Source: an uncultured Thermoleophilia bacterium
Lineage (GTDB): Bacteria; Actinomycetota; Thermoleophilia; UBA2241
Direction: 5' to 3'
Assembly (NCBI GenBank): GCA_963762125.1
Contig: CAVXJO010000012.1
Coordinates: 26,392-90,391 of the forward strand
Length of the DNA stretch: 64,000 bases
Below the pieces are notes generated by a model that was not told where the DNA came from, did no database searches, and saw nothing but the letters and a program-made list of their open reading frames with translations. This document shows, in pieces, positions 28,018 to 44,517 of this stretch (position 1 is its first letter; the number at the start of each line of letters is the position of its first letter). Position numbers and translations under genes: made by a program.

Positions 28018-28479
28018 ATGACCGCATCGACAGTGGCTGCATCGGGGTTCCTCACCGCGCATAGCAGCCTTGGGGCCGACCTGACGCTGCTGGTGTCGGT
28101 GGCGGCCATCGTCCTGCTCAGCGCCGGCGTCTTCCTCGCCCGGCGGCGGCGCTACGACGCACACCGCTGGACGCAGACCGTGGCAGTGCTCCTCAACGCC
28201 GTCATGGTCGTCACCTGGATGCTGCGCTCGCTGGTGCAGTACATCCTCCCGGGGATACCGGGGAGCCTCAGCGAGCGCGGACACGCCCTCGCCGCCGTGC
28301 ACGCCGCGACCGGCGCCGTCGGCGTGGCGCTCGGTCTCTTCCTCCTCGTGCGCGCCAACCAGCTCACGCGCCGCCACGAGAGCGTGAGCCGCTACAAGCC
28401 GGTCATGCGCATCGCCTACCTGGTCTACCTGGCCGGGTTCTTGCTCGGCGTCGCGCTGTACGTGGTGACCTATGGCTGA
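28018..28479 (+). CDS. small 4-TM membrane protein (possibly DUF420-like), first gene of the B12-radical-SAM operon
   Basis: An AGGAGG RBS precedes MTASTVAASGFLTAHSSLGADLTLLVSVAAIVLL... Its stop overlaps the next gene's start by 8 bp (ATGGCTGA). Confidence 0.6.
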   Translation: MTASTVAASGFLTAHSSLGADLTLLVSVAAIVLLSAGVFLARRRRYDAHRWTQTVAVLLNAVMVVTWMLRSLVQYILPGIPGSLSERGHALAAVHAATGAVGVALGLFLLVRANQLTRRHESVSRYKPVMRIAYLVYLAGFLLGVALYVVTYG

Positions 28480-29938: not shown

Positions 29939-31416
29939 GCGCTGAGGAGCCGGCTGCGCTGAGCAGGCGCGGCGCCGGCGGCGGCAGCCGCGGCGGTGTG
30001 GCCCGCAGCTCGCCCTGGGCGAGCGGCGCCTGGGCGTGGCCGCGGACACCGGACCGGCGGCTGCTGGCGCTCGGCGTCCTCCTCCAGATCGCCCTAGCGC
30101 TGCTGGCGTTCGATCACGCGCACGACATGCGACTCTTCCAGGCGACCGGGTACCTCGTCGCGACCGGCCACAGTCCCTACGCGCCGCTCGACCTCAGCGC
30201 CGTGTTCCACGACGCGGTGTTCCAGGGGCGCCTCGCGATCGGCTATCCGCCGCCGTGGCCGTTGCTGCTCGGCGGCATCTACCGGGTGACCTACGCGCTC
30301 GTGCCCGACCTCCACCTGTACGCGGCGGCGATCCGGCTGCCGGTGATCGCGGCCGACGTCGGGCTCGCTTACCTAGCCGGCGCGGCGCTCCAGAACCTCG
30401 GCGCCGCGCCCTCCGTCGTGCGCCGCGCCTGGCTGGCGCTCCTCTTCAATCCCTTTCTGCTCTACGTGGGCGCCGTCTGGGGCCAGATCGACGCCGTGGT
30501 CGCGCTTCTCTCCCTGGCCGCCCTCCTGCTGGCGGCCTCCGGCCGGCGCGACCTCTCCGCCGTGACGCTGGCGCTGGCCGTCTGCGTCAAACCGACGGCG
30601 GCCCCGATGCTGCTCGCCGTGCTCCTCTTCGTCGGCGCGCCCTCCTTGCTCCGCGCGGCGCGCTATGCGTCCGTCTTCGCCGTCGGCGCCTTCGTCTTCT
30701 ACGTCCTGCCCTTCCTCGTCCTCGGATGGGACGCCTCTCCGGCCCACATGGCTAACGCACAGCTGTCCATGATCGGAGCGATGTCCCTCACGGCGGTCGC
30801 GCGCCTCTGGACCGAGTCGCTCGCCTTGGGCGGCCACTGGTGGCTTCTGGGCCTGCTCTGGGCGCCCGCGCTCCTCGTCGCCGCGCTCGTCGCGCGCGGC
30901 AGGTCACGCGAGCCCGCCGGCCTTCTTGCCGTCGGCGCGGCGCTGACGCTCGTGTTCTTCCTCTTCCGCACCTGGCTGGCCGAACCGAACGTGATCGTCG
31001 TGCTGGCGCCGGTGCTCGTACTGGCCGCGCTCGACCGGCTGGACCGGCGGCTCTTCACCGCACTATGGGTCGTCCCGCTCGCCTTCGTCGCGGCCGACGC
31101 CTCGCCGCTGCGACTGCTGTGGCGGTTGTTCCCCGCAGCCGCGGACGAGGCGCTGGCGTTCGCCGGGGCTCACGGCGACGTCACGACGGCCGTGAGAGCG
31201 GCCCTGGTCATCGTGTGGCAGGTCGTCGGCTGGTGGATCGTCGTCGCCTGTCTGCGTAAGCCGGGAGCCGAAACAGCGGGGTCCGGCGCGGCCGAGGCGG
31301 CCGCGAAGTCCTCCTCGCCGGGCCCCGGGCTGCCGCAGGCCAGGCGCGTGGGTGCCGGCTCGGCGGGCGCCGCGCCGGCAGGTGCGGCCGATCCCGTGCA
31401 GGATGTCCTGCCGTGA
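29935..31416 (+). CDS. polytopic membrane protein resembling GT-C / DUF2029-type glycosyltransferases (about 12 TM helices)
   Basis: GTG start overlapping the rSAM1 stop as GTGA. The sequence LFNPFLLYVGAVWGQIDAVVALLSLAALLLA...LALAVCVKPTAAPMLLAVLLF is typical of GT-C mannosyl/arabinosyl-transferase-like membrane domains. This is family-level only. Confidence 0.5.
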   Translation: MSAEEPAALSRRGAGGGSRGGVARSSPWASGAWAWPRTPDRRLLALGVLLQIALALLAFDHAHDMRLFQATGYLVATGHSPYAPLDLSAVFHDAVFQGRLAIGYPPPWPLLLGGIYRVTYALVPDLHLYAAAIRLPVIAADVGLAYLAGAALQNLGAAPSVVRRAWLALLFNPFLLYVGAVWGQIDAVVALLSLAALLLAASGRRDLSAVTLALAVCVKPTAAPMLLAVLLFVGAPSLLRAARYASVFAVGAFVFYVLPFLVLGWDASPAHMANAQLSMIGAMSLTAVARLWTESLALGGHWWLLGLLWAPALLVAALVARGRSREPAGLLAVGAALTLVFFLFRTWLAEPNVIVVLAPVLVLAALDRLDRRLFTALWVVPLAFVAADASPLRLLWRLFPAAADEALAFAGAHGDVTTAVRAALVIVWQVVGWWIVVACLRKPGAETAGSGAAEAAAKSSSPGPGLPQARRVGAGSAGAAPAGAADPVQDVLP

Positions 31417-32291
31417 GGACCGTCTTCGAGCTGGGCGACGGCCTCGCGCTGGCGCTGGCGGAGACGGCCGGCGCGGGAGAGCAGCCTGATCACGGCGCCG
31501 TCGGGCCGTACCCCACGAGCGGATTGCAGAAGGGGCTCCTGCTGCTCGACGAGGGGCGGGAGCTCAGCAGCGAGGGCGTCGGCTTCGGCGTCCCGATCCT
31601 CAAACGCGGACCGCGGGCGGTGTTCCCCGGCAGTGGTGAGGCCGTCGTCCATCCCGGGACCCCGCGCGCGATCACGATGACCTACGCGATGGACCGCGTC
31701 GAACGGCTCGGCGGGCGCCGCCACCGCAGCTTCTTCCACAGGCCGCTCGATGAGGCGCGCGAGGCATTCGCCCTTCTCTACCGGCGCGCTCCGCTGCTTC
31801 GTCGTCCGCTGCTGGCCGCGTCCAACGGGATCCGCTGGCTGCTGCACGTGCGCACGCGGTTCGAGCCGACCGCCCCGGTCGCAGTCGTGCCCGTCACCTA
31901 TCGGGCCGGCGATCGCCCCGGCGAGGTCGTGGTCAGCGCCGATCTGAGCCGCCTGCCCGACGCCGTGACCGAGGTCGTGCTGATGAACGAGCTCGGGGCC
32001 GACGTGTTCGACCACTACCGGGACAGCGACGGGGCCGACCTGCAAGGGACGGGCATCGGCGCCTGGAACCAGGTCGGCGCCGCCACGGCCTCGTTCGTCG
32101 CCGAGGAGAGCGGCGTCTCATTCACTCTCGAGAGCGGTCCAGACCCGGATGCGCCCGGCGTGCGCCTCTACCGTGGCCGCGAGGTCGCCAAGGGCCGGCT
32201 CGCGTGGGCCGGGTTCGGCTACACCCTGCGGCCCGGCCCGCCGACGTTCACGTACACGCTGCACGTCGCACGCCGCGAGGTCCGGCGGTGA
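31413..32291 (+). CDS. hypothetical protein (292 aa, soluble, no recognised domain) within the rSAM operon
   Basis: GTGA overlaps at both ends place it inside the coupled operon. There are no TM segments. Confidence 0.5.
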   Translation: MRTVFELGDGLALALAETAGAGEQPDHGAVGPYPTSGLQKGLLLLDEGRELSSEGVGFGVPILKRGPRAVFPGSGEAVVHPGTPRAITMTYAMDRVERLGGRRHRSFFHRPLDEAREAFALLYRRAPLLRRPLLAASNGIRWLLHVRTRFEPTAPVAVVPVTYRAGDRPGEVVVSADLSRLPDAVTEVVLMNELGADVFDHYRDSDGADLQGTGIGAWNQVGAATASFVAEESGVSFTLESGPDPDAPGVRLYRGREVAKGRLAWAGFGYTLRPGPPTFTYTLHVARREVRR

Positions 32292-33640
32292 GCTCGGTGC
32301 TCCTCGTCTATCCGTTCTTCCGTCGCTCGCTCGACCGCTCGCGGTTCCGCTTTCCGCCGCTCGGGCCGGCGTACGTGGCGGCGAGCCTGCGCCGGGCCGG
32401 TCACGAGGTGAGGCTCCTCGACTGCACGTTCCTGAGCCGCGAGCGGGCGTGGGAGCTGGCCCTCGCGGCCCGGGCGGACGTCGCCGGCGTGTACTGCATG
32501 GCGACCATGCGCGAGGACGCCCTGTGGTTCGCGCGGCGACTGCGCGGCAGGTGCGACCTGCTCATCGCCGGCGGCCCCCTGCCGACCTGCGAGCCGGAGT
32601 CGTTCCTCGCCGACTTCGACGTGGTCGTGCGCGGCGAGGGCGAACAGACGATGGTCGAGGCCCTCGCCGCGCGCGCAGCAGGAGCGGACCTGGACGCCGT
32701 GCCCGGCGTGGTAGCCCGGAGTACGGGCGGCGCAGCCGGCGCGGCTCCGGAGCGACCGCTCGCCGCCGATCTCGACGCCCTCCCCTTCCCCGCTCGCGAC
32801 CTGCTGCCCAACGCCGCCTACGTCAAGCACGGGCGGCGGCGCTACGGCTACGCCGTCACTACGGTGATGAGCAGCCGCGGCTGCCCGTTCGCCTGCGAGT
32901 TCTGCAGTAACGTCGTCTTCGGCGCCTCCTACCGCGAGCGTTCACCGTCAAGCGTCGTCGACGAGGTCGAGGAGGCGCTCGCGCTGGGCTACGACCGCAT
33001 CGCCTTCGCCGACGACGTCTTCACCCTGCGCCGCGAGCGCGTTGCCGCCGTCTGCGCCGAGATCGAGCGACGCGGGCTGCGCTTCGCCTGGGAGTGCCTC
33101 GCCCGGGTGGACGGCATCGACCGGGCGACCGCCGAGACGATGCGCAGCGCGGGCTGCCGGACCGTCTTCTTCGGCATCGAGTCCGGCAGCGACGAGGTCC
33201 TGCGCATGATGCGCAAAGGCATCACCGCGGCCCAGGCCCGCAAGGCCGTCTGGGCCGCTCACGCGGCCGGCCTCGAAGTCGGCGCGTTCTTCATCCTGTG
33301 TTACCCGGGCGAGACCGACGAGACGGTGCTCGAGACCCTCCGCTTCGCCGCATCCCTGCCGCTCGACTACATCGGCCTCTCGATGCCATACCCGCTGCCG
33401 GGGACCCCCCTGGGAGAGCGGATGAAGAGCCGCGTGACGGGCGAGTCGCGGCCCGACGGCAGCCCGCTCATGAACCAGCAGCTGACCTACGAGGGCGAGT
33501 TCTCGGCGGCCAAGATGCGCTTCGCCATCCTCGCCGGCAAAGGACAGTTCGTGCTGCGCCGGCGGCTGGGGCGCTTCGGCCCCGCCGCCCTCCGGCTCAC
33601 GCAGGCGCCGGTCGAAGCGCTCTTCCGGCGCCTGCGCTGA
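32288..33640 (+). CDS. B12-binding-domain radical SAM enzyme, paralog 2
   Basis: VSSVLLVYPFF...VRLLDCTF... (B12 domain) and SSRGCPFACEFC (rSAM motif), with the same architecture as paralog 1. Confidence 0.85.
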   Translation: MSSVLLVYPFFRRSLDRSRFRFPPLGPAYVAASLRRAGHEVRLLDCTFLSRERAWELALAARADVAGVYCMATMREDALWFARRLRGRCDLLIAGGPLPTCEPESFLADFDVVVRGEGEQTMVEALAARAAGADLDAVPGVVARSTGGAAGAAPERPLAADLDALPFPARDLLPNAAYVKHGRRRYGYAVTTVMSSRGCPFACEFCSNVVFGASYRERSPSSVVDEVEEALALGYDRIAFADDVFTLRRERVAAVCAEIERRGLRFAWECLARVDGIDRATAETMRSAGCRTVFFGIESGSDEVLRMMRKGITAAQARKAVWAAHAAGLEVGAFFILCYPGETDETVLETLRFAASLPLDYIGLSMPYPLPGTPLGERMKSRVTGESRPDGSPLMNQQLTYEGEFSAAKMRFAILAGKGQFVLRRRLGRFGPAALRLTQAPVEALFRRLR

Positions 33641-33743: not shown

Positions 33744-35078
33744 TCAGGCGGCGGTCGTCTGCTTGGCAGCGAACGCCGTCATCGTCTCGTCGATGCGGCG
33801 CCGCAGCCAGCTCTCGTCGATGTCGGAACCGAAGACGAAGGTGACCTCGTTCTCGTGCGTCCAGTCGCGGCCCTCGTCGTCACCACCCAGACGCTCCCAC
33901 AGCCGCGACCCCGGGAGGGGCATGGGCACGTTGAAGGAGATCTCCGCGAGCGGCAGGTCGAGCGCGAAGGCCAAGGTCTGCTCGATGTCGGCCGCGGTCT
34001 CGCCCGGATAGCCGACGATGAAGAAGGCGGCGACCTCGATGCCCGCCTCCCGATACACCGTCGCCGCCCGCACCCCCTGCTCCACCGTGGTCTCCTTCTG
34101 CATCAGGTCCAAGGTCGCCTGGCTGCCCGACTCGAGACCCAGGTAGACCCTCCGGCACCCGGAGGCTCGCATGAGCCGCGCCGTCGAATGGTCGATCCCG
34201 CTGACGCGTGAGAGGCAGCTCCACGTGAGTCCGAGGGGCGTCATCCGCCGGCAGAACTCCTCCAAGTAGTCGCGCCGCAGCGTGAACGTGTCGTCGGCGA
34301 TCCACAAGCCGTCGTACCCGAAGTGGACGATCTCGTCGATCTCGGCGAACACGGCGTCCAGCGGGCGCAGGCGTACCTCGCGACCGAAGACGGGCTTGGA
34401 GCAGAACTCGCACCCGAAGGGACAGCCGAGCGTCGCGAGGAGCGTCGTCGGCCGATGGCCGGTGCGCGCCCACTCCCGCTGGTAGGCGCGGTGGTCGAAG
34501 TCGCCGCGGTCCGGCAGGGGAAAGCCGGCGATCTGCTCCTGCGTGTGATGCACCGGCGGATTGTCGACCCGAGAGCCGCGCCGATCCGTGACGAGGCCGG
34601 CATAGTCTTCGAGCGGCAGATCGCCGGCCGTGACCGGCGTCGCCCCGCGCTCCAGGTACTCGCGGCAGAATGCGGGGAAGCTCAGGTCGGCTTCGCCGCG
34701 GAACACGACGTCGACATGGGGAAGGAAGCGCCCCGGGAAGACGGTCGGCAGCGGGCCGCCGGCCACCAGCAAGGCGTCGGGCAACCGTTCACGCACCGCG
34801 GCGGCGAGGCGGACCGCGTTGCCGGTGAGGCTTACCATGGCCGAGATGCCGACGACCGCCGGCTGCCAGGCGACCAGGTCGTCGAGGAGCGCGTCGAGCG
34901 AACTGAACGTGCCGTCGAAGACCCGCGCCTCGACGCCGGCACGCTTGAGGTGGGCGCTGAGCAGTGCGAGGCCGAGGGGCGGGAACAGGACCTCGGTCCT
35001 CGCCCTGGTGCGGAAATAGGGAAACACCAAGGCCACGCCTCGTTGCCGCATGAGCCCCGGTGTCTCGACCATGAGCAA
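33744..35078 (-). CDS. B12-binding-domain radical SAM enzyme, paralog 3 (convergent with paralog 2)
   Basis: VALVFPYF...ARVFDGTF (B12 domain) and TLGCPFGCEFC (rSAM motif). An alternative start at MRQRG near 35051 is possible. Confidence 0.85.
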   Translation of the reverse strand: MLMVETPGLMRQRGVALVFPYFRTRARTEVLFPPLGLALLSAHLKRAGVEARVFDGTFSSLDALLDDLVAWQPAVVGISAMVSLTGNAVRLAAAVRERLPDALLVAGGPLPTVFPGRFLPHVDVVFRGEADLSFPAFCREYLERGATPVTAGDLPLEDYAGLVTDRRGSRVDNPPVHHTQEQIAGFPLPDRGDFDHRAYQREWARTGHRPTTLLATLGCPFGCEFCSKPVFGREVRLRPLDAVFAEIDEIVHFGYDGLWIADDTFTLRRDYLEEFCRRMTPLGLTWSCLSRVSGIDHSTARLMRASGCRRVYLGLESGSQATLDLMQKETTVEQGVRAATVYREAGIEVAAFFIVGYPGETAADIEQTLAFALDLPLAEISFNVPMPLPGSRLWERLGGDDEGRDWTHENEVTFVFGSDIDESWLRRRIDETMTAFAAKQTTAA

Positions 35079-35174
35079 TGCTGGCCCGCCACGACGCGCG
35101 CGTCAACATCGACTTCCCTCGGCGCGGTACGCGGGGCTGCGCACGGTGCACGCGCTGTGGCAGTATCGTCGGCG

Positions 35175-36026
35175 ATGGACGTGCGCGCACTCATCGACCG
35201 GCGCTACTCGTGCCGCGCTTACCTCGAACGGCCGATCGCCGCGGGGGACCGCGATGCGCTCGCGACGTTCATGGCGGCGAAGACGGCGGGACCGCTCGGT
35301 TCGGCGGTGCGCTTCGGCCTCATCGCCGCCTCGTCGGACGACGAGGGCGCTCTCAAGCGTCTCGGGACCTACGGCTTCATCAAGGGCGCCAGGGGGTTCC
35401 TCGTCGGCGCCGTGCGCAAGGGGTCACGCGACCTCGAGGACTACGGCTATCTCCTCGAAGGGCTCGTCCTGCGCGCCACCGAGCTCGGGCTGGGCACCTG
35501 CTGGCTGGGTGGGACCTTCACGCGCAGCACCTTCACGTCCCGCTTCGGCGGCGTCGACCGCGACGAGACGATCCCCGCCGTCGTCTCCGTCGGCTACCCG
35601 GGAGACGACGGCACGGAGCGCATCCGCGAGCGCGAGGAGGGCACGCGGCGCTACCCGCCCGACGAGCTCTTCTTCGGCGACGAGTGGGGCGTGCCGCTCG
35701 GCCGCCAGGGCACGGACGGCTACGCCCCGGCGCTCGAGGCCGTACGCATGGGCCCCTCCGCGACCAACAAGCAGCCCTGGCGCATCGTCCGTCGCGGCGG
35801 CGACTGGCACTTCTACCTCGAACGCACGAAGGGCTACGGCAAGGGCAGCCCGTGGTTCAAGCTGCTGCGCATCGCCGACCTGCAGCGCGTCGACCTCGGC
35901 ATCGCCATGTGCCACTTCGATCTTGTGGCGCGCGAGTCCGGCCGCGACGGCCGCTGGATCGTCGAGGACCCGGGCCTCTCGTTGCCGGGCCCGGGCATCG
36001 AGTACACGGCCACCTGGCGCGGCTGA
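35175..36026 (+). CDS. nitroreductase-superfamily protein (TM1586-type putative nitroreductase)
   Basis: MDVRALIDRRYSCRAYLERPIAAGDRDAL...GLGTCWLGG...PWRIV. Encoded divergently from rSAM3. Confidence 0.7.
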   Translation: MDVRALIDRRYSCRAYLERPIAAGDRDALATFMAAKTAGPLGSAVRFGLIAASSDDEGALKRLGTYGFIKGARGFLVGAVRKGSRDLEDYGYLLEGLVLRATELGLGTCWLGGTFTRSTFTSRFGGVDRDETIPAVVSVGYPGDDGTERIREREEGTRRYPPDELFFGDEWGVPLGRQGTDGYAPALEAVRMGPSATNKQPWRIVRRGGDWHFYLERTKGYGKGSPWFKLLRIADLQRVDLGIAMCHFDLVARESGRDGRWIVEDPGLSLPGPGIEYTATWRG

Positions 36027-36155
36027 CGACCGGGCCCGACCGGGCCGGCCCGGGCGACGTTCATCTCCCGTTCATGCACTGGCGGAGACACCCCACCTCA
36101 GATGGGTGGATAGTCCCCGACCGCGCCGTCCCCCACGGCGCACAAGGAGCACGAC

Positions 36156-37592
36156 ATGGAAGCAGAATGGGAAGGCGCCGGGCTGCCGGCGAGTGACGCC
36201 GCCCGGTGGGAGGCGCGCGAGCGCGACCGGGCGCGGACGCGCCCGTGGACGCTCGCGCGCCCCGCCGGGGCGACGGCCAGGTCCAACAGGTTCCTGGCCA
36301 AGGTGCTCGGCGTCCTCGCCGCGGTCGGCATGTTCGTCAGCGTGGCGCTCGTCGTGCCCGTGACGTCACTGTCGTCACTCGCCGGCCCCGGCGGTGCGCT
36401 CACGGCCGTCGGCCGCGTCACCGCCATGTCGGGCACGTACCTGCTGCTCGTCACGCTGCTCCTGATCGCGAGAATACCAGCGGTCGAACGGGCTATCGGC
36501 CAGGACCGCCTCGTCAAGCTGCACCGTCGACTGGGACCGGCGATCCTCGGCCTCATCAGTGTGCACGTGGTCGCCGTCGTCCTGGGCTACGCCGCCCAGG
36601 TGTCCGCCGGCCCGTGGCACGAGCTCATCATCCTGGCCACGACGTTCCCGGGCATGATGCTCGCCGTCGCCGGCCTCGGCCTGCTCTTCCTGGCCGCGTT
36701 CACGTCCTACCGGTACGTGCGTCGCCACATGAAGTACGAGACCTGGTGGGCGGTCCACCTGTACACCTACCTGGCAGTCGCGCTTTCGATCCCGCATCAG
36801 GTCCTGACCGGCGCGCCCTTCATGGGTCACCCGCTGGCGATGGCCTGGTGGCTGACGCTCTGGTTCGCGACCGCCGGCGCCGTCATCGTCTATCGCTGGG
36901 GCCTGCCGATCGCGCGCAGCCTCCAGCACAGGGTGACGGTCCACAGCGTCGAGCAGGAGGCGCCGGGCGTGGTCTCGGTGACCATGACAGGCCGGAACCT
37001 GCACAAGCTGGAGGCCTCCGGCGGCCAGTTCCTGCACTGGCGCTTCATGAAGCGCGGCATGTGGTGGCAGGCGCACCCGTACTCGCTGTCGGCCGTGCCG
37101 ACCACCAGCCGGATGCGGATCACCGTCAAGGACCTCGGCGACCACAGCAGTTCGTTGGCGGCCATCGCGCCCGGGACGCGCGTGGCCATCGAAGGCCCCT
37201 ACGGAGCCTTCACGCATCGTGCGCGGCACACCGACCAGGTCGTGCTCGTCGCGGCCGGCGTCGGGGTCACGCCCGTCAGGGCGCTGCTCGAGGACCTGCC
37301 GCGTCACGTCGACGTCGTCGCGATCCTGCGCGGCGCCAGCCGGCGCGACCTGGTCCTGCGCGACGAGCTGGCCCACCTGGTGGGCGAGCGCGGCGGGCAA
37401 CTCCACGAGGTCATAGGGCCGCGCTCGCACGCGCGTCTCGACGAGCAAGGCCTGGCCGGGCTCGTCCCCGACATCGCCGACCGGGACCTGTACGTCTGCG
37501 GCCCCAACGGCTTCATGCAGGGCGTCATCGCCGCCGCCCGCAACCTGGGCGTCCGCGGCGAGCGCATCCACCACGAGGACTTCGCCTTCTAG
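36156..37592 (+). CDS. ferric-reductase-like transmembrane domain protein with C-terminal FAD- and NAD(P)H-binding domains (NOX/FRE-like)
   Basis: An AAGGAG RBS; a 6-TM domain with His pairs (HVVAVVLGY...HLYTYLAVALSIPH); an FAD-binding HPYS motif; and an NAD-binding GVGVTP motif. Confidence 0.8.
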   Translation: MEAEWEGAGLPASDAARWEARERDRARTRPWTLARPAGATARSNRFLAKVLGVLAAVGMFVSVALVVPVTSLSSLAGPGGALTAVGRVTAMSGTYLLLVTLLLIARIPAVERAIGQDRLVKLHRRLGPAILGLISVHVVAVVLGYAAQVSAGPWHELIILATTFPGMMLAVAGLGLLFLAAFTSYRYVRRHMKYETWWAVHLYTYLAVALSIPHQVLTGAPFMGHPLAMAWWLTLWFATAGAVIVYRWGLPIARSLQHRVTVHSVEQEAPGVVSVTMTGRNLHKLEASGGQFLHWRFMKRGMWWQAHPYSLSAVPTTSRMRITVKDLGDHSSSLAAIAPGTRVAIEGPYGAFTHRARHTDQVVLVAAGVGVTPVRALLEDLPRHVDVVAILRGASRRDLVLRDELAHLVGERGGQLHEVIGPRSHARLDEQGLAGLVPDIADRDLYVCGPNGFMQGVIAAARNLGVRGERIHHEDFAF

Positions 37593-37626
37593 GCGTCCGC
37601 GACCAGACCCGACCACGGGAGGAGTC

Positions 37627-38133
37627 ATGAAGCGTTCAGCAATCGTCATCGCCGCCACCGCCGCCGGTCTGGCCGCCGTGATCAGCTTCAAGCCGCACGG
37701 CGTCGCCGGCGGCGTCACCACGGCGGCGTCCACCGCCGCTCTCACCACCGGCAACGCCAACGTCTCCGGCGCCCAGACGGTCGTCGGCAGCGTGCAGCAG
37801 CTCAGCGGCGGCCTCGGCGACATCCAGGTCAAGGTCACCGCCGCGAACGGCAAGATCGTGAGCGTCGGCATGGCCCAGATGAATCTCCACGGGCCGCAGA
37901 GCCAGCAGATCTCGAACAACGTCATCCCGCAGCTGGAGCAGCAGGTCATGGCCTCCAACGGCGGCCCCATCCACGGCGTCTCCGGCGCCACGTACACGAG
38001 CCGTGCCTTCGGTTCATCCCTGCAGGCCGCGCTCAGCCAACTGAAGGGAGGGGCAAATGCGCAACTGGCAGCAGCAGGTAATGGGAACGGTGGTCTCGTT
38101 CAGTCTCCGGGAGGACAGGAGCACGACGACTGA
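37627..38133 (+). CDS. secreted FMN-binding domain protein (FMN_bind; predicted ApbE flavinylation target)
   Basis: Signal peptide MKRSAIVIAATAAGLAAVISF...; the domain ends with ...VSGATYTSRAFGSSLQAAL (Thr in the S/T-GAT flavinylation motif). A low-complexity C-terminal tail overlaps apbE by 77 nt. Confidence 0.75.
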   Translation: MKRSAIVIAATAAGLAAVISFKPHGVAGGVTTAASTAALTTGNANVSGAQTVVGSVQQLSGGLGDIQVKVTAANGKIVSVGMAQMNLHGPQSQQISNNVIPQLEQQVMASNGGPIHGVSGATYTSRAFGSSLQAALSQLKGGANAQLAAAGNGNGGLVQSPGGQEHDD

Positions 38134-38866
38134 GCGCGGCGAGGTGCAAGCCCAGCGCGAGCTCATCGCTGAAGGAGTGGAGCGCGCCCGGGCCAAGCTG
38201 CAGTGGGTCGACGACGTGTTCAGCACCTGGAAGCCAGGGAGCCCGGTAAGCCGGCTGCGCCGGGGTGAGATCCGGCTCGAGGACACGCCGCCCGAAGTCG
38301 CCGAGGTGCTGGAGCTCTGCCGCCGCGTGCGGGTCGCGTCGGACGGCTGGTTCGACCCGTGGGCGATGCCGGGCGGCGTCGACCCGACGGGGCTCGTCAA
38401 GGGCTGGGCGGTCGAGCGCGCCCTCGACGAACTGAAGACGGCCGGGGCGCCGGCGGCGATGATCAACGCCGGAGGCGACATCGCCGCGTTCGGACAGCCT
38501 GCCCCCGGCCAGCCCTGGCGCATCGCGATCGAGAATCCGCTCTCGATGCAGCGGATCCTCCTCACGGCCGATCTGGCCGCAGCGGGCGCCGTGGCCACCT
38601 CCGGCTCGTACCAGCGCGGCGCGCATCTGGTCGATCCGCGCAGCGGCGGCCCCACGACTGCGCTTCTCTCGGCCACGGTGATCGGGCACGACCTGGCGTT
38701 CGCCGACGCGCTCGCGACCGCCCTGTACGCGTCCGGCGGCGACCTGCTCGAGCGCCTGTCGCTGATCACCGGCTACCACGGGTTCATCGTGGACGGCCGC
38801 GGCGACATCCACGCCTCGCGGGGCTTTCCCATCGTGCTCCGCGGCGTGGAGGCGGTGCCGGCCTGA
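38057..38866 (+). CDS. apbE: FAD:protein FMN transferase ApbE
   Basis: AGGGAGGGG RBS; VMGTVVSFSL...DPTGLVKGWAVERALDEL...SGSYQRGAHLVDPRSGGP are ApbE family hallmarks. Confidence 0.8.
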   Translation: MRNWQQQVMGTVVSFSLREDRSTTTERGEVQAQRELIAEGVERARAKLQWVDDVFSTWKPGSPVSRLRRGEIRLEDTPPEVAEVLELCRRVRVASDGWFDPWAMPGGVDPTGLVKGWAVERALDELKTAGAPAAMINAGGDIAAFGQPAPGQPWRIAIENPLSMQRILLTADLAAAGAVATSGSYQRGAHLVDPRSGGPTTALLSATVIGHDLAFADALATALYASGGDLLERLSLITGYHGFIVDGRGDIHASRGFPIVLRGVEAVPA

Positions 38867-39051
38867 GGCCCCCGGGGGCAGCAGACGCACCGCGGCACAA
38901 GGCCGGCCGGACTCCGCCAAGGGAGTGCGGCCGGCCGTCCATCGTCGTTGGGGGGAGCCGGCGTCTCGGCTGCCGCGGCGACCGGCAGCTGCCGCGGCGC
39001 CGGTGCCGGACCAGCAGCCGTGACCGGCGGCGGCCCGCCGCCCGCCGCGGT

Positions 39052-40035
39052 TCAGGTCGCCGGCAAGGTGAGCGTCACGCGGGTGCCGGCGCCGACCTCG
39101 CTCGCCACCGTCAGGTCGCCGCCCATCCCGCGCAGCGCCCAGTGCGCGATGGCGAGCCCGAGTCCCGAACCCCCTCGTGCGCGCGAGCGTGCCTCGTCGC
39201 CGCGGTAGAAACGGTCGAACACGTGCTCGAGCACCTCGGGCGGCATGCCCTCACCGTGGTCCGTCACCACCACCTGTGAGCCGGCAACGACGCGCAGTAC
39301 CGCGATCTCCACGGTCGCTCCTGCCGGAGAGTGCTCCACCGCGTTGCGCAGCACGTTGCGCAGGGCGCGGCGCACGTGGCCCTCGTCGCCGACGGCGGGC
39401 GCCACGCCGGCGGCCTCGGCCCGGAGCGTCACGCCGGTGGTCGCGGCCAGCGCGCCCAGCTCGTCCGCGGTCTGGCGCGCCAGCGCGACCAGGTCGATCG
39501 GCTCACGTGCCAGGGGCTCCTGATGGGCGTCGATCCGGGAGAGCGTCAGCAGGTCCTCGACCATCCCCGACATCCTGTCGACCTCCTCGAGCCCGCTCGC
39601 CAGCACCGGCCGGGTCGCCGCGTCGAGGTCCGCCCCCCGGAGCGCCACCTCGAACTCGGCCTTCATGATCGCCAGCGGCGTGCGCAGGTCGTGCGAGGCG
39701 TCGGCCACGAAGCGCTTCTGCGCCGCCACACTCTCCCGGATGGGGCTCAGCGTCCGGCGCGCGTACAGCAGACCCCCGGCCCCCACCACGACCACGATGA
39801 CCGCATCCACCACGACCAGCTGCCAGCGCAGCGACCCCAGCGAGCGGGAGACGAACGCCTGCTCCGATTCCGTGTCCCGGTAGGCGCCGGACGCCGCCGT
39901 CCGGATGTCGGCGCGCACGGTGAGGTACATGAAGACGCTCGAGACGACGACCAGTACGACGACCAGCGCCGCGAACAGCAGCGCGAGCCGGCGACGGGCG
40001 CGTACGAAGACGTCCGGGCGTCCGGGCTCAGTCAC
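39052..40035 (-). CDS. sensor histidine kinase (OmpR-partner type)
   Basis: FVADASHDLRTPLAIMKAEFEV (H-box); HATPase motifs at the C-terminus. The probable GTG start at 40035 overlaps the response-regulator stop. Confidence 0.85.
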   Translation of the reverse strand: MTEPGRPDVFVRARRRLALLFAALVVVLVVVSSVFMYLTVRADIRTAASGAYRDTESEQAFVSRSLGSLRWQLVVVDAVIVVVVGAGGLLYARRTLSPIRESVAAQKRFVADASHDLRTPLAIMKAEFEVALRGADLDAATRPVLASGLEEVDRMSGMVEDLLTLSRIDAHQEPLAREPIDLVALARQTADELGALAATTGVTLRAEAAGVAPAVGDEGHVRRALRNVLRNAVEHSPAGATVEIAVLRVVAGSQVVVTDHGEGMPPEVLEHVFDRFYRGDEARSRARGGSGLGLAIAHWALRGMGGDLTVASEVGAGTRVTLTLPAT

Positions 40036-40810
40036 GCGGCCGGCCCGTGTCGCCCTCGCCGTCCGCTTGTCCGCCGTCCGTCTCGTCGGCACGCAGCACG
40101 TACCCGACTCCGCGCACGGTCTCGAGCCGCACGCCGCCGCCCGGCCGGTCGAGCTTGCGCCGCAGCCGGCCGGCGTAGACGTCGACGATGTTGGAGAAGG
40201 AATCGAACTCGTCGTCCCAGGCGTGATCGAGGATCCAGTCGCGGCTCAGGACCTCGCCCGGGTGCAACAGGAAGAGGCGCAGCAGGCTGAACTCCTTCGG
40301 GCTCAGAACGAGCGGCTCGCCACCGTACCTGGCCACCCGCGCCGCGGGGTCCAGGGTGAGCGTGCCCATCGTCAGGACCGGCGGCAGCGCCCGGCGCGGC
40401 CGGCGCAGCAGCGTGCGGATGCGCGCCAGCAGTTCCTCGAAGGCGAACGGCTTCACCAGGTAGTCGTCGGCGCCGGCGTCGAGGCCGGTCACCTTGTCGG
40501 CCGTCGCGTCCCGCGCCGTCAGCATCAGCACCGGCAGGGTCAGACCCTGCTGGCGCAGCTCCTTGCAGAGCGTGAACCCGTCGACCACGGGCAGCATCAC
40601 GTCGAGGATCACGAGGTCGTAGGGCAGCTGCCCGGCGGAGCCTCCGGAGTCGGGGGCGCCGCGCCGGGCCGCGAAGCGGCGGCGCGCGGCGCCCCCGTCG
40701 TAGAGCACGTCCACGGCGTAGCCCTCGGCCTCAAGCCCCGTCTTGAGGGCCTGGGCCAGCTTCTCGGCATCTTCCACGACCAGGATCCGCACGCGACCCA
40801 GCCTCCACAC
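40028..40810 (-). CDS. OmpR-family response regulator
   Basis: VRILVVEDAEKLAQALKTGLEAEGYAVDV...LPYDLVILDVMLP, plus a winged-helix C-terminus (LSPKEFSLLRLFLLHPGEVLSRDWILDHAW). Confidence 0.9.
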   Translation of the reverse strand: MWRLGRVRILVVEDAEKLAQALKTGLEAEGYAVDVLYDGGAARRRFAARRGAPDSGGSAGQLPYDLVILDVMLPVVDGFTLCKELRQQGLTLPVLMLTARDATADKVTGLDAGADDYLVKPFAFEELLARIRTLLRRPRRALPPVLTMGTLTLDPAARVARYGGEPLVLSPKEFSLLRLFLLHPGEVLSRDWILDHAWDDEFDSFSNIVDVYAGRLRRKLDRPGGGVRLETVRGVGYVLRADETDGGQADGEGDTGRPRD

Positions 40811-40994
40811 TCGGCGTGACGTTCTCTACAGCCTTCCCCGCCGCCGCCCTGCGGTCAAGCGCGCCGTAGACTCCACGGCGAGCTGCCGGTCCCGACGGTC
40901 GCATATGATGTGAGGTGGTCCGCAGCGCAGCCCCGAAGGAGTCCGCACGTCCCGTCCGACCCGCAAGGTCCAGCGCGCCCAGAACATCAGCCGC

Positions 40995-41510
40995 ATGTGC
41001 CTGGTCTGCGGTCGCGACAATCCCTTCGGCCTCCACGCGCGCTACTACGAGCTGGCGCCGGACGAGCCCGCGGCCGCCGGCGCCGACCCCAGACTCGCGT
41101 CTCTCAAGTCCGGCGCCGAACTCCTCGGCATCTTCACTCCGCGCGAGGAGCACCAGAGCTACCCGGGACGGCTGCACGGCGGCGTGAGTTCGGCCATCCT
41201 CGACGAGACGATCGGGCGCGCCATCCTCCTCGATCAGCCCGACACCTGGGGCGTCACCGTCGAGTTCAGCGTGCGCTTTCGCCGTCCGCTGCCCCTGGGC
41301 GAGGAGATCCGCTGCGTCGCGCGCATCACCCGCGACACGAGCCGGCTCTTCGAGGGCTCGGGAGAGATCGTCCTCGCCGACGGCTCCGTGGCCGCCGAGG
41401 CGCAGGGCAAGTACCTCAAGCAGACGCTGCCCGACATCACCGACGGCGACTTCGCCGAGCGCGAGTGGTTCGCCGACCAACGCGAGCGGCCCGAGGACGT
41501 CGAGCTCTAG
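40995..41510 (+). CDS. hotdog-fold thioesterase-superfamily protein (PaaI/YiiD-like) with an N-terminal CxxC
   Basis: MCLVCGRDNPFGLHARYYE...GRLHGGVSSAILDETIGRAI. Confidence 0.7.
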   Translation: MCLVCGRDNPFGLHARYYELAPDEPAAAGADPRLASLKSGAELLGIFTPREEHQSYPGRLHGGVSSAILDETIGRAILLDQPDTWGVTVEFSVRFRRPLPLGEEIRCVARITRDTSRLFEGSGEIVLADGSVAAEAQGKYLKQTLPDITDGDFAEREWFADQRERPEDVEL

Positions 41511-41582
41511 GGAGCGTCGCATGCGCGACGCTCCCCGAAACGGCCGAGGGCGGGCCGTCCTCCAGGACGGCCCGCCCTCGGC
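41511..41582. terminator. tandem GC-rich perfect palindromic hairpins between convergent genes (bidirectional terminator candidate)
   Basis: ggagcgtcgcatgcgcgacgctcc is a 24-nt perfect palindrome. gccgagggcgggccgtcc-tcc-aggacggcccgccctcggc is a 19-bp perfect stem. Confidence 0.5.
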
Positions 41583-41618
41583 GCTTTCACCCTCCGGCCT
41601 GCGCGGCCGGAAGAAGCT

Positions 41619-42383
41619 TCACTTCACCTTGAACGTCATCGCCCTCGACTTGGAGGCCTTGGACGTCGCGGTCTTCGCGATGGACGCGGTCATGCGGTAG
41701 GTGCCTTTCTTGCCGGGCTTGTACTTCCAGGCGTAGGCCCCGGTGGCCTTCCCGGTGACGCGGGCCGTCTTGACCTTGACCCACTTCGCGCCCTTCTTGC
41801 GGTCGACCCTGACGGTGACCTTCTTGCCTGCCACCGTGGTCGCAGGCGTAGCTACACCCGAGGCCTTGACGGTCTTACGAAGCCTGATCGTCTTCGGCGT
41901 CACCTTCAGCGTGACCTTCGTAGCGATGACAGTCGCCGTCGCTGTCGGCGTCGGGGTCGGCGTCGCGGTCGCGCTCGGGGTCGGAGTCGGCGACGCATAG
42001 CCGTGGCAGCCATTCGTCGTCCCGCAGCCCGCGGTCCCGTGCAGAGTCTGGGCGGCGATGATGGTGGCCGTGGCACCGTGGCAACTCACGCACGCGCTCG
42101 GCAGGGGCGGGGTCGCCGTGCTGAGCGTGTGGCACGTACCGCAGGCCTGAGCTTTGTGGGTTGTCTTGTTGTGGAAGGCGTCATTGAACGAGTAGCTGTG
42201 GCAACTGCTGCACGGCCCAACCCCGTTCACGGCGGTGTCGAACGTGGGCAGCGCCTGGGCGTTCTGGGCGCCGATCGATGCGCTCACGGCGATGACCGCC
42301 AGCATGATCAGCAGAGCGGTAGTGGCCATCAGGATGGGAGTGGAGACTCCCCGCCTGCCGGCGTGTGCACGCACGATCCCCAT
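41619..42383 (-). CDS. secreted small multiheme c-type cytochrome (3 CxxCH plus 1 variant) with a Thr/Pro linker and a Lys-rich C-terminal beta-rich domain
   Basis: AAGGAG RBS; signal peptide MGIVRAHAGRRGVSTPILMATTALLIMLAVIAV; heme motifs CSSCH, CGTCH, CVSCH and CGTTNGCH; linker PTPTPSATATPTPTPTATAT; then a KVTLKVTPK...TFKVK tail. Confidence 0.7.
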   Translation of the reverse strand: MGIVRAHAGRRGVSTPILMATTALLIMLAVIAVSASIGAQNAQALPTFDTAVNGVGPCSSCHSYSFNDAFHNKTTHKAQACGTCHTLSTATPPLPSACVSCHGATATIIAAQTLHGTAGCGTTNGCHGYASPTPTPSATATPTPTPTATATVIATKVTLKVTPKTIRLRKTVKASGVATPATTVAGKKVTVRVDRKKGAKWVKVKTARVTGKATGAYAWKYKPGKKGTYRMTASIAKTATSKASKSRAMTFKVK

Positions 42384-42537: not shown

Positions 42538-42984
42538 GTGCCCGTCGCAGACCGCCCCCGCCCCCCCGTCACCGCCTGGGTCCTGCTCGTCCTTCTGCTG
42601 ATCCAGGGCTTGGGTGGACTCGCCGGCGGGCTCTCGCTCACCATCGCACCCGACGGATCGATCCTGCAGATGTCGACGTCTCTGCTCGACGGCTCGCCCT
42701 TCCCTGACTTCCTCGTCCCGGGCCTCATCCTCATGCTCGTGCTTGGGGTGCTGCCGCTGGTCGCGGCCGTCGGCCTGTGGCTGCGCCGCAACTGGGCCTG
42801 GTACGCGGCGTTCGTCGTCGGCTGTGGCCTCATGATCTGGATCCTCGTGGAGATCGTCATCATCCCCTACAACTGGCTGCAGCCCCTCTTCGGCGGCGTC
42901 GGATTGCTGATCTTCGTCGTCTCACTGCTCAAGCCGGTGCGCCGCTTCTACGGTGTCAGCCTGCCGGGAGATGCCGGCGCCTGA
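42538..42984 (+). CDS. 4-TM membrane protein of unknown function
   Basis: AAGGAG RBS plus GTG; WVLLVLLLIQGLGGLAGGLSL...LILMLVLGVLPLVAAVGLWL...IWILVEIVIIPY... Confidence 0.55.
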   Translation: MPVADRPRPPVTAWVLLVLLLIQGLGGLAGGLSLTIAPDGSILQMSTSLLDGSPFPDFLVPGLILMLVLGVLPLVAAVGLWLRRNWAWYAAFVVGCGLMIWILVEIVIIPYNWLQPLFGGVGLLIFVVSLLKPVRRFYGVSLPGDAGA

Positions 42985-43060
42985 TCTCGATGTGCCGGCG
43001 GCGCCCGGCATCGTCAGCGCCGACAACACAGGTCCCTGCAGACCGGCGGCGAACATGCCG

Positions 43061-43582
43061 ATGCACACCGGGCAGAAGAGGCCAGCGGGAGCTTCCGTGC
43101 GCAGAGAGAGCACCAGACAGCGAGTGTTCCTTACCTTCGCCGCGGGCGACCTTGCGTGCGCGCGGCCAGAGACTGCGCGCCTCCTGGCCGGCGGAGGGAT
43201 CTGCCTCGATCAAGCACTGACCGGCGAGCCCTTCGCGAGCGAACGCGGCGCCATCATCCGCGCCAGCCTGCTGACGCGTCTGCGCCACTGCACCAGCGCC
43301 CTCTGCCTGTACGGGGCGCGCACGGCCGACGATGACTGGGTGCGCTGGGCGCTGGAGACCGCGGCCGAGCTCAGGCTCCCCCTGCTCGGCGCCGCCCTGC
43401 CCGGCCAGAAGTCGAAGGACGCGGAGCGCTACCTGACGCGGCTCGGCGCCGAACTGATCCCGCTGAATCGCGATGCGATCGTCACGCGCACGCGAGCGTT
43501 CTCCACTCGCCGCATCGCACCGGCGATCGACGCGGCGTCCATCGCCGAGACGCTGCATCTCATGCGCCACCAGGTGCGCTAG
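43061..43582 (+). CDS. small cytoplasmic protein with a TIR-like (DUF1863-like) pattern; the assignment is tentative
   Basis: RVFLTFAAGDLACARPETARLLAGGGICLDQALTGEPFASERGAIIRASLLTRLRHCTSALCLYGARTADDDWVRWALETAAELRLPLL follows the TIR βA-αA-βB...S-x-W-x-x-E layout. Confidence 0.4.
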   Translation: MHTGQKRPAGASVRRESTRQRVFLTFAAGDLACARPETARLLAGGGICLDQALTGEPFASERGAIIRASLLTRLRHCTSALCLYGARTADDDWVRWALETAAELRLPLLGAALPGQKSKDAERYLTRLGAELIPLNRDAIVTRTRAFSTRRIAPAIDAASIAETLHLMRHQVR

Positions 43583-43614: not shown

Positions 43615-44517
43615 CTACGTCCCCGCGAGAACGACCAGATCCCGGCCACGCGCCTTCGCTTCGTACAGCGCATCGTCGGCGCGTGCGATGAGCGCGTCCA
43701 TGGACCCTCCGGCGTACACGGCCCCGCCCAGGCTCACCGTGACGGCGAGATCGCGTTCAGACGCCGTGAACGGCGCTTCGGAGGCGGCACGGCGAAGGCG
43801 TTCGAGAAGTTCGCTGAACTCGGCCGATGAGACTCCCGGCACGACGACGAGAAACTCCTCGCCGCCGAAGCGCCCGACGCTGTCGCAGGGCCGCAGCGTG
43901 GACTCCATCCTGCGCGCCAGCTCACACAGCACGTCGTCGCCGGCAGCGTGCCCGAACTCGTCGTTCACCAGCTTGAAGTGGTCGATGTCGAGCATGCCGA
44001 CGGCCAGCCGCGTGCCTTCGCGCGCGGAGCGCTGGAGTTCCTCGTCGAGAGCCTCCACGATGGCGCGACGGTTGGGCAGGCCCGTCAGGGGATCGGTATG
44101 CGCCTGCACCTCCAACCTCGTCTGCGTCTCGATCAGCTCCTCATTCAGCTCGACCAGCCGGCGACCCACCCCGATCCTCGCGCGCAGTTCGGCGGGGTCG
44201 TAGGGCTTGCCGACGTAGTCATCCGCGCCCGCTTCGAAGCCGGTCATCATGTGATCCTTCTCCCCGAGAGCGGTGAGGAGGATCACGTAGGGGGGCTGGC
44301 GCGTGTCGAGGGCCCGGACGCGGCGGCACACATCGATCCCGTCCATCTCCGGCATCATCCAGTCGAGGATGGCGATCCTGGGGGCGTCGTCTGCCTGCAG
44401 CACCCGCCAGGCGTCGGCGCCGTTGGTCGTCACCGCGACATCGTAGCCCCACTTCTCGAGCACCTTCTTGAGGAGCACGCGAGAGGTGATGTCGTCCTCT
44501 GCGATCAGCACCCTCAT
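43615..44517 (-). CDS. response regulator with a GGDEF output domain (PleD-like REC-GGDEF)
   Basis: [27 protein letters not shown]...[11 protein letters not shown] (REC domain), then LTGLPNRRA...[13 protein letters not shown] (GGEEF active site). Confidence 0.9.

Follow-up and report, generated by a model that had tools for sequence, protein, structure and literature searches.

A predicted MsrQ-like electron-transfer operon with a leaderless ApbE in an uncultured Thermoleophilia bacterium

The window analysed here is a 64-kb stretch of DNA from an uncultured soil bacterium of the class Thermoleophilia (Actinomycetota; contig CAVXJO010000012.1), and its subject of interest is a three-gene operon at positions 36156–38866. 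The operon encodes a ferric-reductase-domain protein (FRD), a protein with an FMN_bind domain, and ApbE, an enzyme that transfers flavin mononucleotide (FMN) from flavin adenine dinucleotide (FAD) to proteins. We read the locus as encoding a transmembrane electron wire of the MsrQ-like type, leading from NAD(P)H to a flavoprotein, and we put the probability of this reading at roughly 70%. Under the proposed mechanism, which is drawn from the homology of FRD to NOX enzymes and from conserved residues, cytoplasmic NAD(P)H would reduce FAD in the C-terminal dehydrogenase domain of FRD, and electrons would then move one by one across the membrane through two stacked b hemes (His123/His137 and His201/His214). 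They would be received on the outer face by an FMN covalently bound to Thr122 of the anchored FMN_bind protein. The co-encoded ApbE would attach this FMN from FAD, most likely in the cytoplasm before the FMN_bind domain crosses the membrane, and an adjacent OmpR-type two-component system most likely controls transcription of the operon through a GTTCAT-N5-GTTCAT box. The operon does not encode the final acceptor, which is most likely a small oxidant outside the cell, for example ferric iron (free or chelated), another metal, a quinone, humics or oxygen; in the Thermoleophilia lineage of the window, a nearby small surface multiheme cytochrome may be the acceptor. The sequence data show the domain content, the conserved residues for cofactor binding, the fold class, the gene order in about 75 loci, the lack of a leader on ApbE and the conserved box; the direction of electron flow, the side of the membrane on which the FMN_bind domain lies, the place of flavinylation, the regulator that binds the box and the acceptor are inferred.

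Systems of this kind have already been described, and the locus is an ordinary, well-formed example of a catalogued class. What is added here is a clade of leaderless ApbE enzymes with an anchored substrate, a conserved box upstream of the operon, and an occasional divergent pairing with a small cytochrome. By the counts given for this cluster type in a 2021 survey (1,468 genomes; PMC8238504), it is among the most widespread predicted routes for moving cytoplasmic reducing power across the membrane in Actinobacteria. Candidate physiological roles include iron acquisition, the chemistry of oxygen and reactive oxygen species, humic or metal reduction, and extracellular respiration. Cytoplasmic flavinylation, if true, would change the picture of how these flavoproteins mature, the candidate regulator and its DNA box provide a handle for finding the inducing signal, and a third experimental handle is the lineage whose small surface cytochrome could plausibly accept the electrons.

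A NOX-type flavocytochrome and its flavinylation partners

Positions 36156–38866 hold a real three-gene operon. Three co-oriented open reading frames (ORFs) lie on the + strand of this interval in the ORF list, forming the trio FRD, FMN_bind and ApbE, and Pfam agrees with the domains that a sequence-only reading of the window had given them. The window has a GC content of ~71%, and such a high-GC genome contains many shadow ORFs; the third-codon-position GC of the three frames (0.93, 0.85 and 0.91 for FRD, FMN_bind and ApbE, respectively) marks them as the coding ones. A Shine-Dalgarno-like sequence precedes each start codon, and the FRD start codon is kept across an alignment of nine relatives. 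The closest relatives of the window are metagenome-assembled genomes (MAGs) of uncultured Thermoleophilia, the top FRD match being 93% identical and located on MAG contig CAWIDR010000027. For a broader comparison, 80 loci from a one-genome-per-species scan were combined with two from metagenome contigs, giving 82 loci, or 83 sequences with the window. The order FRD–FMN_bind–ApbE on one strand recurs in about 75 of the 80 scanned loci, with representatives in Thermoleophilia, Solirubrobacterales, Acidimicrobiia and Streptosporangiaceae.

FRD (36156–37592, + strand; 478 aa) is a NOX-type flavocytochrome b, as judged from Pfam, a homologue alignment (A1), phmmer, and an AlphaFold model compared by Foldseek. 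Its first 45 residues are Arg-rich and strongly basic and are followed by six hydrophobic transmembrane (TM) helices at about residues 45–258, an arrangement that places the NAD(P)H domain in the cytoplasm. Pfam assigns Ferric_reduct (PF01794) to residues 91–211 (E 2e-15; 57 bits against a cutoff of 28), FAD_binding_8 to residues 272–351, and NAD_binding_1 (PF00175) to residues 364–457 (26.7 bits against a cutoff of 22). Candidate heme ligands with NOX spacing are found on TM3 (His123 and His137) and TM5 (His201 and His214), and all four histidines are invariant in the 13 homologues of alignment A1, which share 56–81% identity. Also invariant there are HPYSLS (FAD, residue 307), GVGVTP (NAD(P)H, residue 368) and CGP (residue 448). 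More than 6,000 homologues of FRD were returned in the search made here. Against the PDB, phmmer matches FRD to the S. pneumoniae NOX structures 8qt6 and 8qq7 (E 5e-9) and also to the NOX5 TM domain; by sequence, S. pneumoniae NOX and the NOX5 membrane domain are the only full-length relatives of known structure. The best full-length Foldseek matches of the AlphaFold model are SpNOX, human NOX2, DUOX1 and NOX5.

The second gene (37627–38133, + strand) encodes a protein of 168 aa in which Pfam places FMN_bind (PF04205) at residues 64–137 (E 1.4e-7). Its best PDB match is 8p2a, the crystallised SaFMN3-D2 domain with covalent FMN (E 1.4e-12). The sequence-only reading had credited this protein with the Thr targeted by ApbE, and alignment of the flavinylation motif bears this out: HGVSGATYTS aligns with DAVSGATYTS of 8p2a, and the predicted flavinylated residue is Thr122 in SGAT (codon 37990–37992). 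The motif [ST]GA[ST][YF][ST] is present in 76 of 78 FMN_bind homologues, with Thr in 38 and Ser in 38. The third gene (38057–38866, + strand) shares 77 nt, read in a different frame, with the 3' end of the FMN_bind gene and encodes a short ApbE of 269 aa (Pfam PF02424; E 1.2e-41, 143 bits). It matches the P. stutzeri (5mgy) and V. cholerae (6nxi) enzymes in the PDB. The His of SHIIDP in 6nxi, which is the catalytic His257 of V. cholerae, corresponds in the alignment to His190 (GAHLVDP), and ADALAT aligns with ADGLAT. The ADxLAT segment, which we take to be part of the Mg2+ site, is thus kept.

Meheust, Huang, Rivera-Lugo, Banfield & Light (eLife 2021; PMC8238504) call a flavinylation-associated system MsrQ-like when an ApbE or FMN_bind gene is found among the five genes to either side of a PF01794 gene. 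They count 1,797 such clusters in 1,468 genomes, mostly of Actinobacteria, where they call them 'broadly conserved', with a PF00175 fusion in 1,437, and their model leads from NAD(P)H as the cytosolic donor through the hemes to an extracytosolic flavin. A follow-up study (mSystems 2024; PMC11334425) modelled the bis-heme core, and the models described there place the FMN_bind domain outside. In the window, a PF01794 gene is followed immediately by the FMN_bind and ApbE genes, and the PF01794 protein carries the C-terminal PF00175 domain of the common variant. Because it fits this definition, the locus is a member of an already catalogued class, with which it shares a six-helix bis-heme PF01794 protein fused to PF00175 beside FMN_bind and apbE genes in an actinobacterium. 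It differs in lacking a VIT1 iron transporter or a NuoF-like gene. VIT1 was not found among the neighbouring ORFs of the 82 loci either. In 7–8 distant loci (L031, L019 and 5–6 others), a gene for a NuoF-like, NADH-binding Fe-S flavoprotein and a formate-dehydrogenase/NuoG-like gene are located 3–6 kb upstream of FRD; these neighbours recall the link to NuoF that Meheust et al. noted, and they hint at alternative electron inputs. The leaderless ApbE, the conserved FMN_bind anchor, and the two-component system with its repeat box are not discussed in the passages of PMC8238504 and PMC11334425 that deal with this system.

SpNOX of S. pneumoniae (Hajjar et al. 2017, PMC5676040; 8qq7, 8qt6) is the best PDB match of FRD in both sequence and fold. 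It shares with FRD six TM helices, His-X13-His and His-X12-His pairs on helices 3 and 5, and a fused FAD/NAD(P)H dehydrogenase domain; it differs in that identity is ~14%, FRD has HPYSL and not HPF[ST], and FRD carries the 45-residue basic N-terminal extension. Three sequence filters for NOX proteins are given by Hajjar et al. FRD agrees with the heme filter (two pairs of the form His-X12/14-His, on different TM helices and separated by 20 residues or more; here His123–His137 and His201–His214) and with the NAD(P)H filter (GVGVTP, residue 368). It fails the FAD filter H[PSA]F[TS][LIMV], as it has HPYSL, with a family-invariant Tyr in place of Phe. Because one of the three filters fails, we refer to FRD as NOX-type and not as NOX.

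These likenesses could be taken to mean that the locus encodes a true bacterial NADPH oxidase, in which extracellular superoxide or peroxide would be formed from O2 at the outer heme or the covalent FMN and would serve signalling, competition or the redox cycling of metals, with no dedicated metal or protein acceptor. We consider this unlikely. Among solved structures, the nearest full-length relatives are indeed SpNOX and the eukaryotic NOX/DUOX enzymes, no conserved acceptor gene accompanies the operon, and oxygen consumption is reported in PMC10339131 for one of the multi-FMN proteins, to whose family the nearest structural homologue of the FMN_bind domain belongs. NOX enzymes, however, need neither an FMN_bind protein nor ApbE, both of which are conserved beside FRD, and the FAD motif departs from the NOX filter. 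The conservation of both partners in about 75 of the 80 loci points to the flavoprotein as an obligatory exit to something other than O2 at the heme, so that electrons probably leave FRD through the flavoprotein and not to O2 at the outer heme.

Electron acceptors and the nearby cytochromes

Two multiheme cytochromes in the window had been singled out by the sequence-only reading as neighbours of the operon. Both are real ORFs, but a general link between them and the operon does not hold: an ORF with at least three CXXCH motifs occurs within 10 kb in only 8 of the 83 sequences. As general partners of the operon, the cytochromes were ruled out by tblastn with both proteins together with the CXXCH scan over the 82 loci. 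The small cytochrome (41619–42383, − strand) has three CXXCH motifs and a CGTTNGCH motif, a signal anchor, a Pro/Thr linker and a Lys-rich Ig-like tail, features which suggest a wall-spanning surface protein. A hairpin at 41537–41588, with 25-nt arms that are 92% complementary and a 2-nt loop, is found between this gene and the convergent thioesterase gene; it is probably a bidirectional terminator, though it is unlisted by a T-run-based terminator scan. The large cytochrome (51604–52923, + strand; 439 aa) has a NapC/NirT-type membrane anchor and 14 CXXCH motifs, with the variants CEHACH and CTTSDCH. Its gene stands alone after an adenosine deaminase gene. A multiheme cytochrome of this size is unusual for an actinobacterium, and one related locus (L005) has a homologue of 77% identity. 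It is located 12.7 kb from the operon, behind a phosphorelay cluster, an F420-type oxidoreductase gene and the adenosine deaminase gene, and its head of the NapC/NirT quinol-dehydrogenase type indicates that it would have its own quinol supply.

A second alternative, about as improbable as the NADPH oxidase, is that the operon is a lineage-specific feeder of cytochrome-based extracellular electron transfer (EET), in which the flavinylated protein would pass electrons to the small surface cytochrome and from there onward. Several observations are consistent with such a role. By tblastn, homologues of the small cytochrome (33–62% identity) are found about 5.3 kb downstream of the operon in 10 close relatives. 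In two further loci, L023 and L024, whose FRD proteins are 61–62% identical to that of the window, a homologue lies directly upstream of the operon and is divergently transcribed. The arrangement in L024 includes the box as well, with the cytochrome at 8923–9691 (− strand) and GTTCAT-N5-GTTCAT at 9786–9802, in the middle of the shared 200-nt intergenic region. The signal anchor, Pro/Thr linker and Ig-like tail would also suit a protein that spans the wall. Against this stand the 75 of 83 sequences without an ORF of at least three CXXCH motifs within 10 kb, the poor conservation of the small cytochrome, and its absence from most loci with FRD identity below about 77%. In the window itself, the gene is on the opposite strand, past the two-component system and the thioesterase gene, and has its own hairpin and no upstream box. 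The 14-heme cytochrome, for its part, has its own NapC/NirT-type electron source and is separated from the operon by signalling and nucleotide-metabolism genes. Taken as a whole, the distribution is modest evidence for a link to the small cytochrome that would be specific to certain lineages and not a general mechanism.

A probably anchored substrate and a leaderless transferase

The electron-wire reading requires the FMN_bind domain to be outside the membrane, and several features of the protein bear on this placement. The protein begins with MKR, followed by an 18-residue hydrophobic helix, a conserved His, a short linker and the FMN_bind domain. In 28 distant loci, the TM segment is 60% identical and the domain 38%, and because the helix is conserved better than the domain, it is probably a retained single-pass anchor and not a cleaved signal. 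In this it looks like the retained TM helix of a membrane subunit, as in NqrC and RnfG. The helix is preceded by an invariant Arg, which forms part of KR in 38 homologues (and in the window), RR in about 30, and NR, QR or TR in 7. The invariant Arg, together with an N-terminus that is more basic than the segment past the helix, favours an N-in, C-out orientation. The FMN_bind domain is best placed outside, since the dehydrogenase domain of FRD has to be cytoplasmic and the wire would lead outward. The sequence-only reading had called the protein exported and secreted; its extracytoplasmic placement is favoured here, and free secretion is not, as the protein looks membrane-anchored. A twin-arginine translocation (Tat) signal was weighed on account of the invariant Arg and the leaderless ApbE, and was not adopted as a main claim, the residue before the Arg being K, R, N, Q or T.

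The opposite orientation, in which the FMN_bind domain faces the cytoplasm as an extra redox module of FRD and serves as an alternative electron entry and not as an exit, is considerably less probable than either alternative above. It would agree with an ApbE that is leaderless across the whole clade, and in many homologues the charge bias is modest, with two basic residues before the helix compared with one or two and a His after it. Yet an N-out single-pass anchor with only 3–4 external residues would be unusual, and the invariant basic N-terminus favours N-in. The linkers past the helix are rich in Ser, Thr, Pro and Gly in the homologues, as is typical of extracytoplasmic tethers, and FRD already holds its own cytoplasmic FAD/NAD(P)H entry module. 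The models described in PMC11334425 likewise have the domain outside. One further sequence, P0013 (a JGI metagenome contig; 610 aa), has lost the FRD stop codon and continues through an 18-residue linker into FMN_bind in frame, whether as an artefact of an indel or by natural fusion. A genuine fusion would force the helix into N-in, C-out, because the cytoplasmic C-terminus of FRD is fused to the N-terminus of FMN_bind. As topology evidence, P0013 and a second apparent fusion, P0280, were treated as weak, since P0013 may be a sequencing artefact and P0280 looks like an out-of-frame miscall.

ApbE itself has neither a hydrophobic segment nor a signal peptide, with 8 residues before the conserved MGT strand, and an in-frame stop just upstream excludes a longer ORF. 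In ~70 related loci, the frame upstream of ApbE reads as Arg-rich out-of-frame FMN_bind sequence and never as a hydrophobic segment, and in several of them ApbE starts immediately past the FMN_bind stop codon. A HMMER search with ApbE over 1.84 billion cluster representatives (50%-identity clusters) returned 301 relatives at E<=1e-30. Among the best 150, which were inspected, a hydrophobic N-terminus is missing in 149, with a median of 12 residues before MGT; the sole exception is P0280, apparently a miscalled ORF that runs through the FMN_bind gene it overlaps. Flavinylation of the FMN_bind protein is therefore probably cytoplasmic, to judge from an ApbE that is leaderless clade-wide. The sequence-only reading had described the three genes as a minimal kit for moving electrons from NAD(P)H to an extracytoplasmic flavoprotein. 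This description survives in the form of the MsrQ-like model outlined in PMC8238504, and the part in which ApbE flavinylates outside probably does not hold, as the enzyme lacks a signal peptide.

With the FMN_bind domain outside but ApbE inside, flavinylation in the cytoplasm before translocation would be the simplest reconciliation. It would also explain why no expected Pfam family of flavin or FAD exporters was found among the ORFs scanned near the operon (about 25–57 kb), as an exporter would not be needed. If true, this cytoplasm-first route would mean that an extracytoplasmic ApbE substrate can be modified inside and exported afterwards. A precedent for a cytosolic ApbE is provided by K. 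pneumoniae, where the enzyme flavinylates a soluble cytoplasmic fumarate reductase (PMC12052999). That enzyme likewise has no signal peptide and acts in the cytoplasm, but its substrate stays there, whereas the substrate in the window is membrane-anchored and predicted to work outside. Extending the idea to the whole locus gives a tentative picture, to which we assign somewhat less than even odds. In this picture, the short leaderless ApbE would flavinylate FMN_bind in the cytoplasm, and the protein would then be exported by its conserved x-Arg signal anchor, possibly in a Tat-dependent manner, and would dock to the NOX-type wire outside. The two-component system and the GTTCAT-N5-GTTCAT box would act as the switch, and in some Thermoleophilia the wire would feed a surface multiheme cytochrome.

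Comparison with characterised flavin-based systems helps to delimit the locus. Listeria monocytogenes EET (Light et al. 2018, as summarised in passages of PMC8238504 and PMC9973259) comprises Ndh2, EetA, EetB, DmkA/B, PplA, FmnB and FmnA/RibU. It resembles the window locus in that an ApbE-family enzyme flavinylates an extracytoplasmic FMN_bind protein and electrons flow outward from NADH. It differs in using a type-II NADH dehydrogenase with a dedicated quinone; its FMN_bind protein is a lipoprotein that carries two such domains, its ApbE (FmnB) is exported, and an ECF transporter exports FAD. In the window, the membrane step would be a bis-heme wire and not a quinone relay, and ApbE is leaderless. 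Pfam detected no family that would be expected for Ndh2 (Pyr_redox), EetA/EetB, Dmk or an ECF exporter among the ORFs scanned at ~25–57 kb. The likeness to Firmicute flavin-based EET that the earlier reading proposed is thus confined to the pairing of ApbE with an FMN_bind protein; that reading was right in its core and overstated on this analogy and on the cytochrome link. The Nqr, Rnf and Nos partners looked for near the operon (NqrB/RnfD PF03116, RnfB, NqrF and NosZ) were not detected, the flavinylation Ser/Thr is present, and the match of the FMN_bind protein to the RnfG model is marginal (16 bits against a cutoff of 205). Nor is there an MsrP-like molybdoenzyme in the neighbourhood of the operon or among the recurrent neighbours of the 82 loci. 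As their defining genes were not detected, the window locus is not a Listeria-type EET system, an Nqr/Rnf/Nos paralogue or an MsrPQ system.

Very improbable, and the weakest of the alternatives, is a donor of the MsrQ type that would serve, as in MsrPQ, a repair enzyme or reductase working outside the cytoplasm, with its gene at another place in the genome: FRD and MsrQ/YedZ have Pfam Ferric_reduct in common, but FRD carries the NOX bis-heme pattern and a fused dehydrogenase, which E. coli MsrQ is not known to have, and no exported enzyme that could play the part of MsrP was found near the operon or as a recurrent neighbour in the 82 loci.

Two further cases come from actinobacteria. SaFMN3 of Streptomyces azureus (8p2a; PMC10339131) is the closest solved relative of the FMN_bind domain; it shares with the window protein the SGATYTS motif, an N-terminal anchor and a flanking ApbE gene; it has three FMN domains and the window protein has one. 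In Bifidobacterium breve, mutants tie growth in the presence of an iron chelator to apbE and a membrane protein with FMN_bind (PMC5449479). The gene context there is different (EfeUO-like), and the mutants suggest indirectly that FMN_bind/ApbE proteins of actinobacteria contribute to acquiring iron.

The repeat box, the two-component system and other neighbours

The region upstream of FRD contains the direct repeat GTTCATctcccGTTCAT (GTTCAT-N5-GTTCAT; 36059–36075, + strand), in which two hexamers are spaced 11 bp apart, at a distance of 81–97 nt from the start codon. Nothing else in the window matches it, even with 2 mismatches allowed, and in all nine close relatives compared the upstream region has diverged except for this block. 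Across 1.55 Mb of related sequence, all 23 exact copies shortly precede the FRD gene, each on the + (coding) strand, and CTTCAT-N5-CTTCAT takes the same position in 8 more loci. A pair of hexamers spaced 11 bp apart is the classic layout of an OmpR/PhoB-family site, and the repeat resembles GTTCAYYYRSG, which we take to be the actinobacterial PHO-box repeat unit. The box is a likely candidate site for the adjacent OmpR/PhoB-type regulator. No second box was found at either cytochrome gene promoter in the window or at the promoter of the regulator. The window has no Rfam match to an FMN riboswitch or another RNA element, and a scan of 35900–41100 for sigma-70 promoters and intrinsic terminators returned nothing.

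The two-component system is convergent with the operon. Its sensor histidine kinase (39052–40035, − strand; HisKA and HATPase_c by Pfam) probably starts at a GTG at 40035, as suggested by alignment with orthologue N-termini; the longest ORF extends to 40092. Two predicted TM helices flank a loop of ~30 residues without Cys, His or Met, and orthologues of 59–89% identity occupy the same position in about 20 loci. The response regulator (40028–40810, − strand; Response_reg and Trans_reg_C by Pfam) is of the OmpR/PhoB family and is the proposed regulator of the operon. Its best NCBIfam models are cztR/silR/copR and RppA, both under cutoff. A two-component system is found within 6 kb of the trio in about 35 loci, in upstream, convergent, divergent or co-directional positions, and the response regulator is co-located with the trio in about 32. 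Because the arrangement varies between loci, these associations point to a functional tie with the operon and not to mere inherited synteny. When the 1,226 neighbouring ORFs were clustered all against all, the trio had no recurrent neighbours other than the histidine kinase (35 loci), the OmpR-type response regulator (32 loci) and a hotdog thioesterase (20 loci).

Several points count against the electron-wire reading or against individual steps of it. The AlphaFold model of FRD is of moderate confidence (predicted local distance difference test, pLDDT, 67.6; predicted template modelling score, pTM, 0.58), and the family-invariant Tyr of the FAD motif, described above, departs from the NOX pattern. 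The sidedness of FMN_bind relies on the positive-inside rule, and with these sequences the rule discriminates only moderately well; the FMN_bind N-terminus, with KR in the window and RR, NR, QR or TR elsewhere, is no canonical twin-arginine signal. Our literature search found no documented precedent for an exported ApbE substrate that is flavinylated first and translocated afterwards, and no paper that tests the MsrQ-like cluster type, for which all function is inferred. Among the 1,226 neighbouring ORFs, no transporter, exported enzyme or other candidate recurs as a conserved terminal-acceptor gene. In the regulatory step, the promoter of the response regulator lacks a second box, and 11 loci keep the box without an adjacent two-component system, which makes the assignment of regulator to box circumstantial.

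Immediately upstream of the operon on the same strand is an ORF with a TM1586-type nitroreductase fold (35130–36026, + strand), which is syntenic in 13 close relatives. It is probably its own transcription unit, because the box-containing intergenic region separates it from the FRD gene. The hotdog (4HBT) thioesterase gene (40995–41510, + strand) encodes an N-terminal CxxC; such a gene is found within 6 kb of the FRD cluster in 18 loci, and its position varies. A specific assignment of this enzyme, for example to the synthesis of a naphthoquinone shuttle, was dropped, as NCBIfam returns a generic hotdog domain under cutoff.

Further downstream, an ORF at 42953–43582 (+ strand) has a weak match to ThsB-like TIR domains (E 6e-4, just under the Pfam cutoff), and its family is present in 14 related loci. 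The phosphorelay cluster between the FRD locus and the large cytochrome (43615–48384, − strand) comprises a PAS protein, a PAS/HisKA/HATPase/receiver hybrid kinase, a receiver-Hpt protein and a receiver-GGDEF diguanylate cyclase. On the other side of the operon, three paralogous B12-binding radical SAM enzymes with 29–40% mutual identity (28472–29938, + strand; 32204–33640, + strand; 33744–35078, − strand) cluster with a GT87-family glycosyltransferase (29677–31416, + strand), and close relatives have the same cluster in synteny upstream of FRD.

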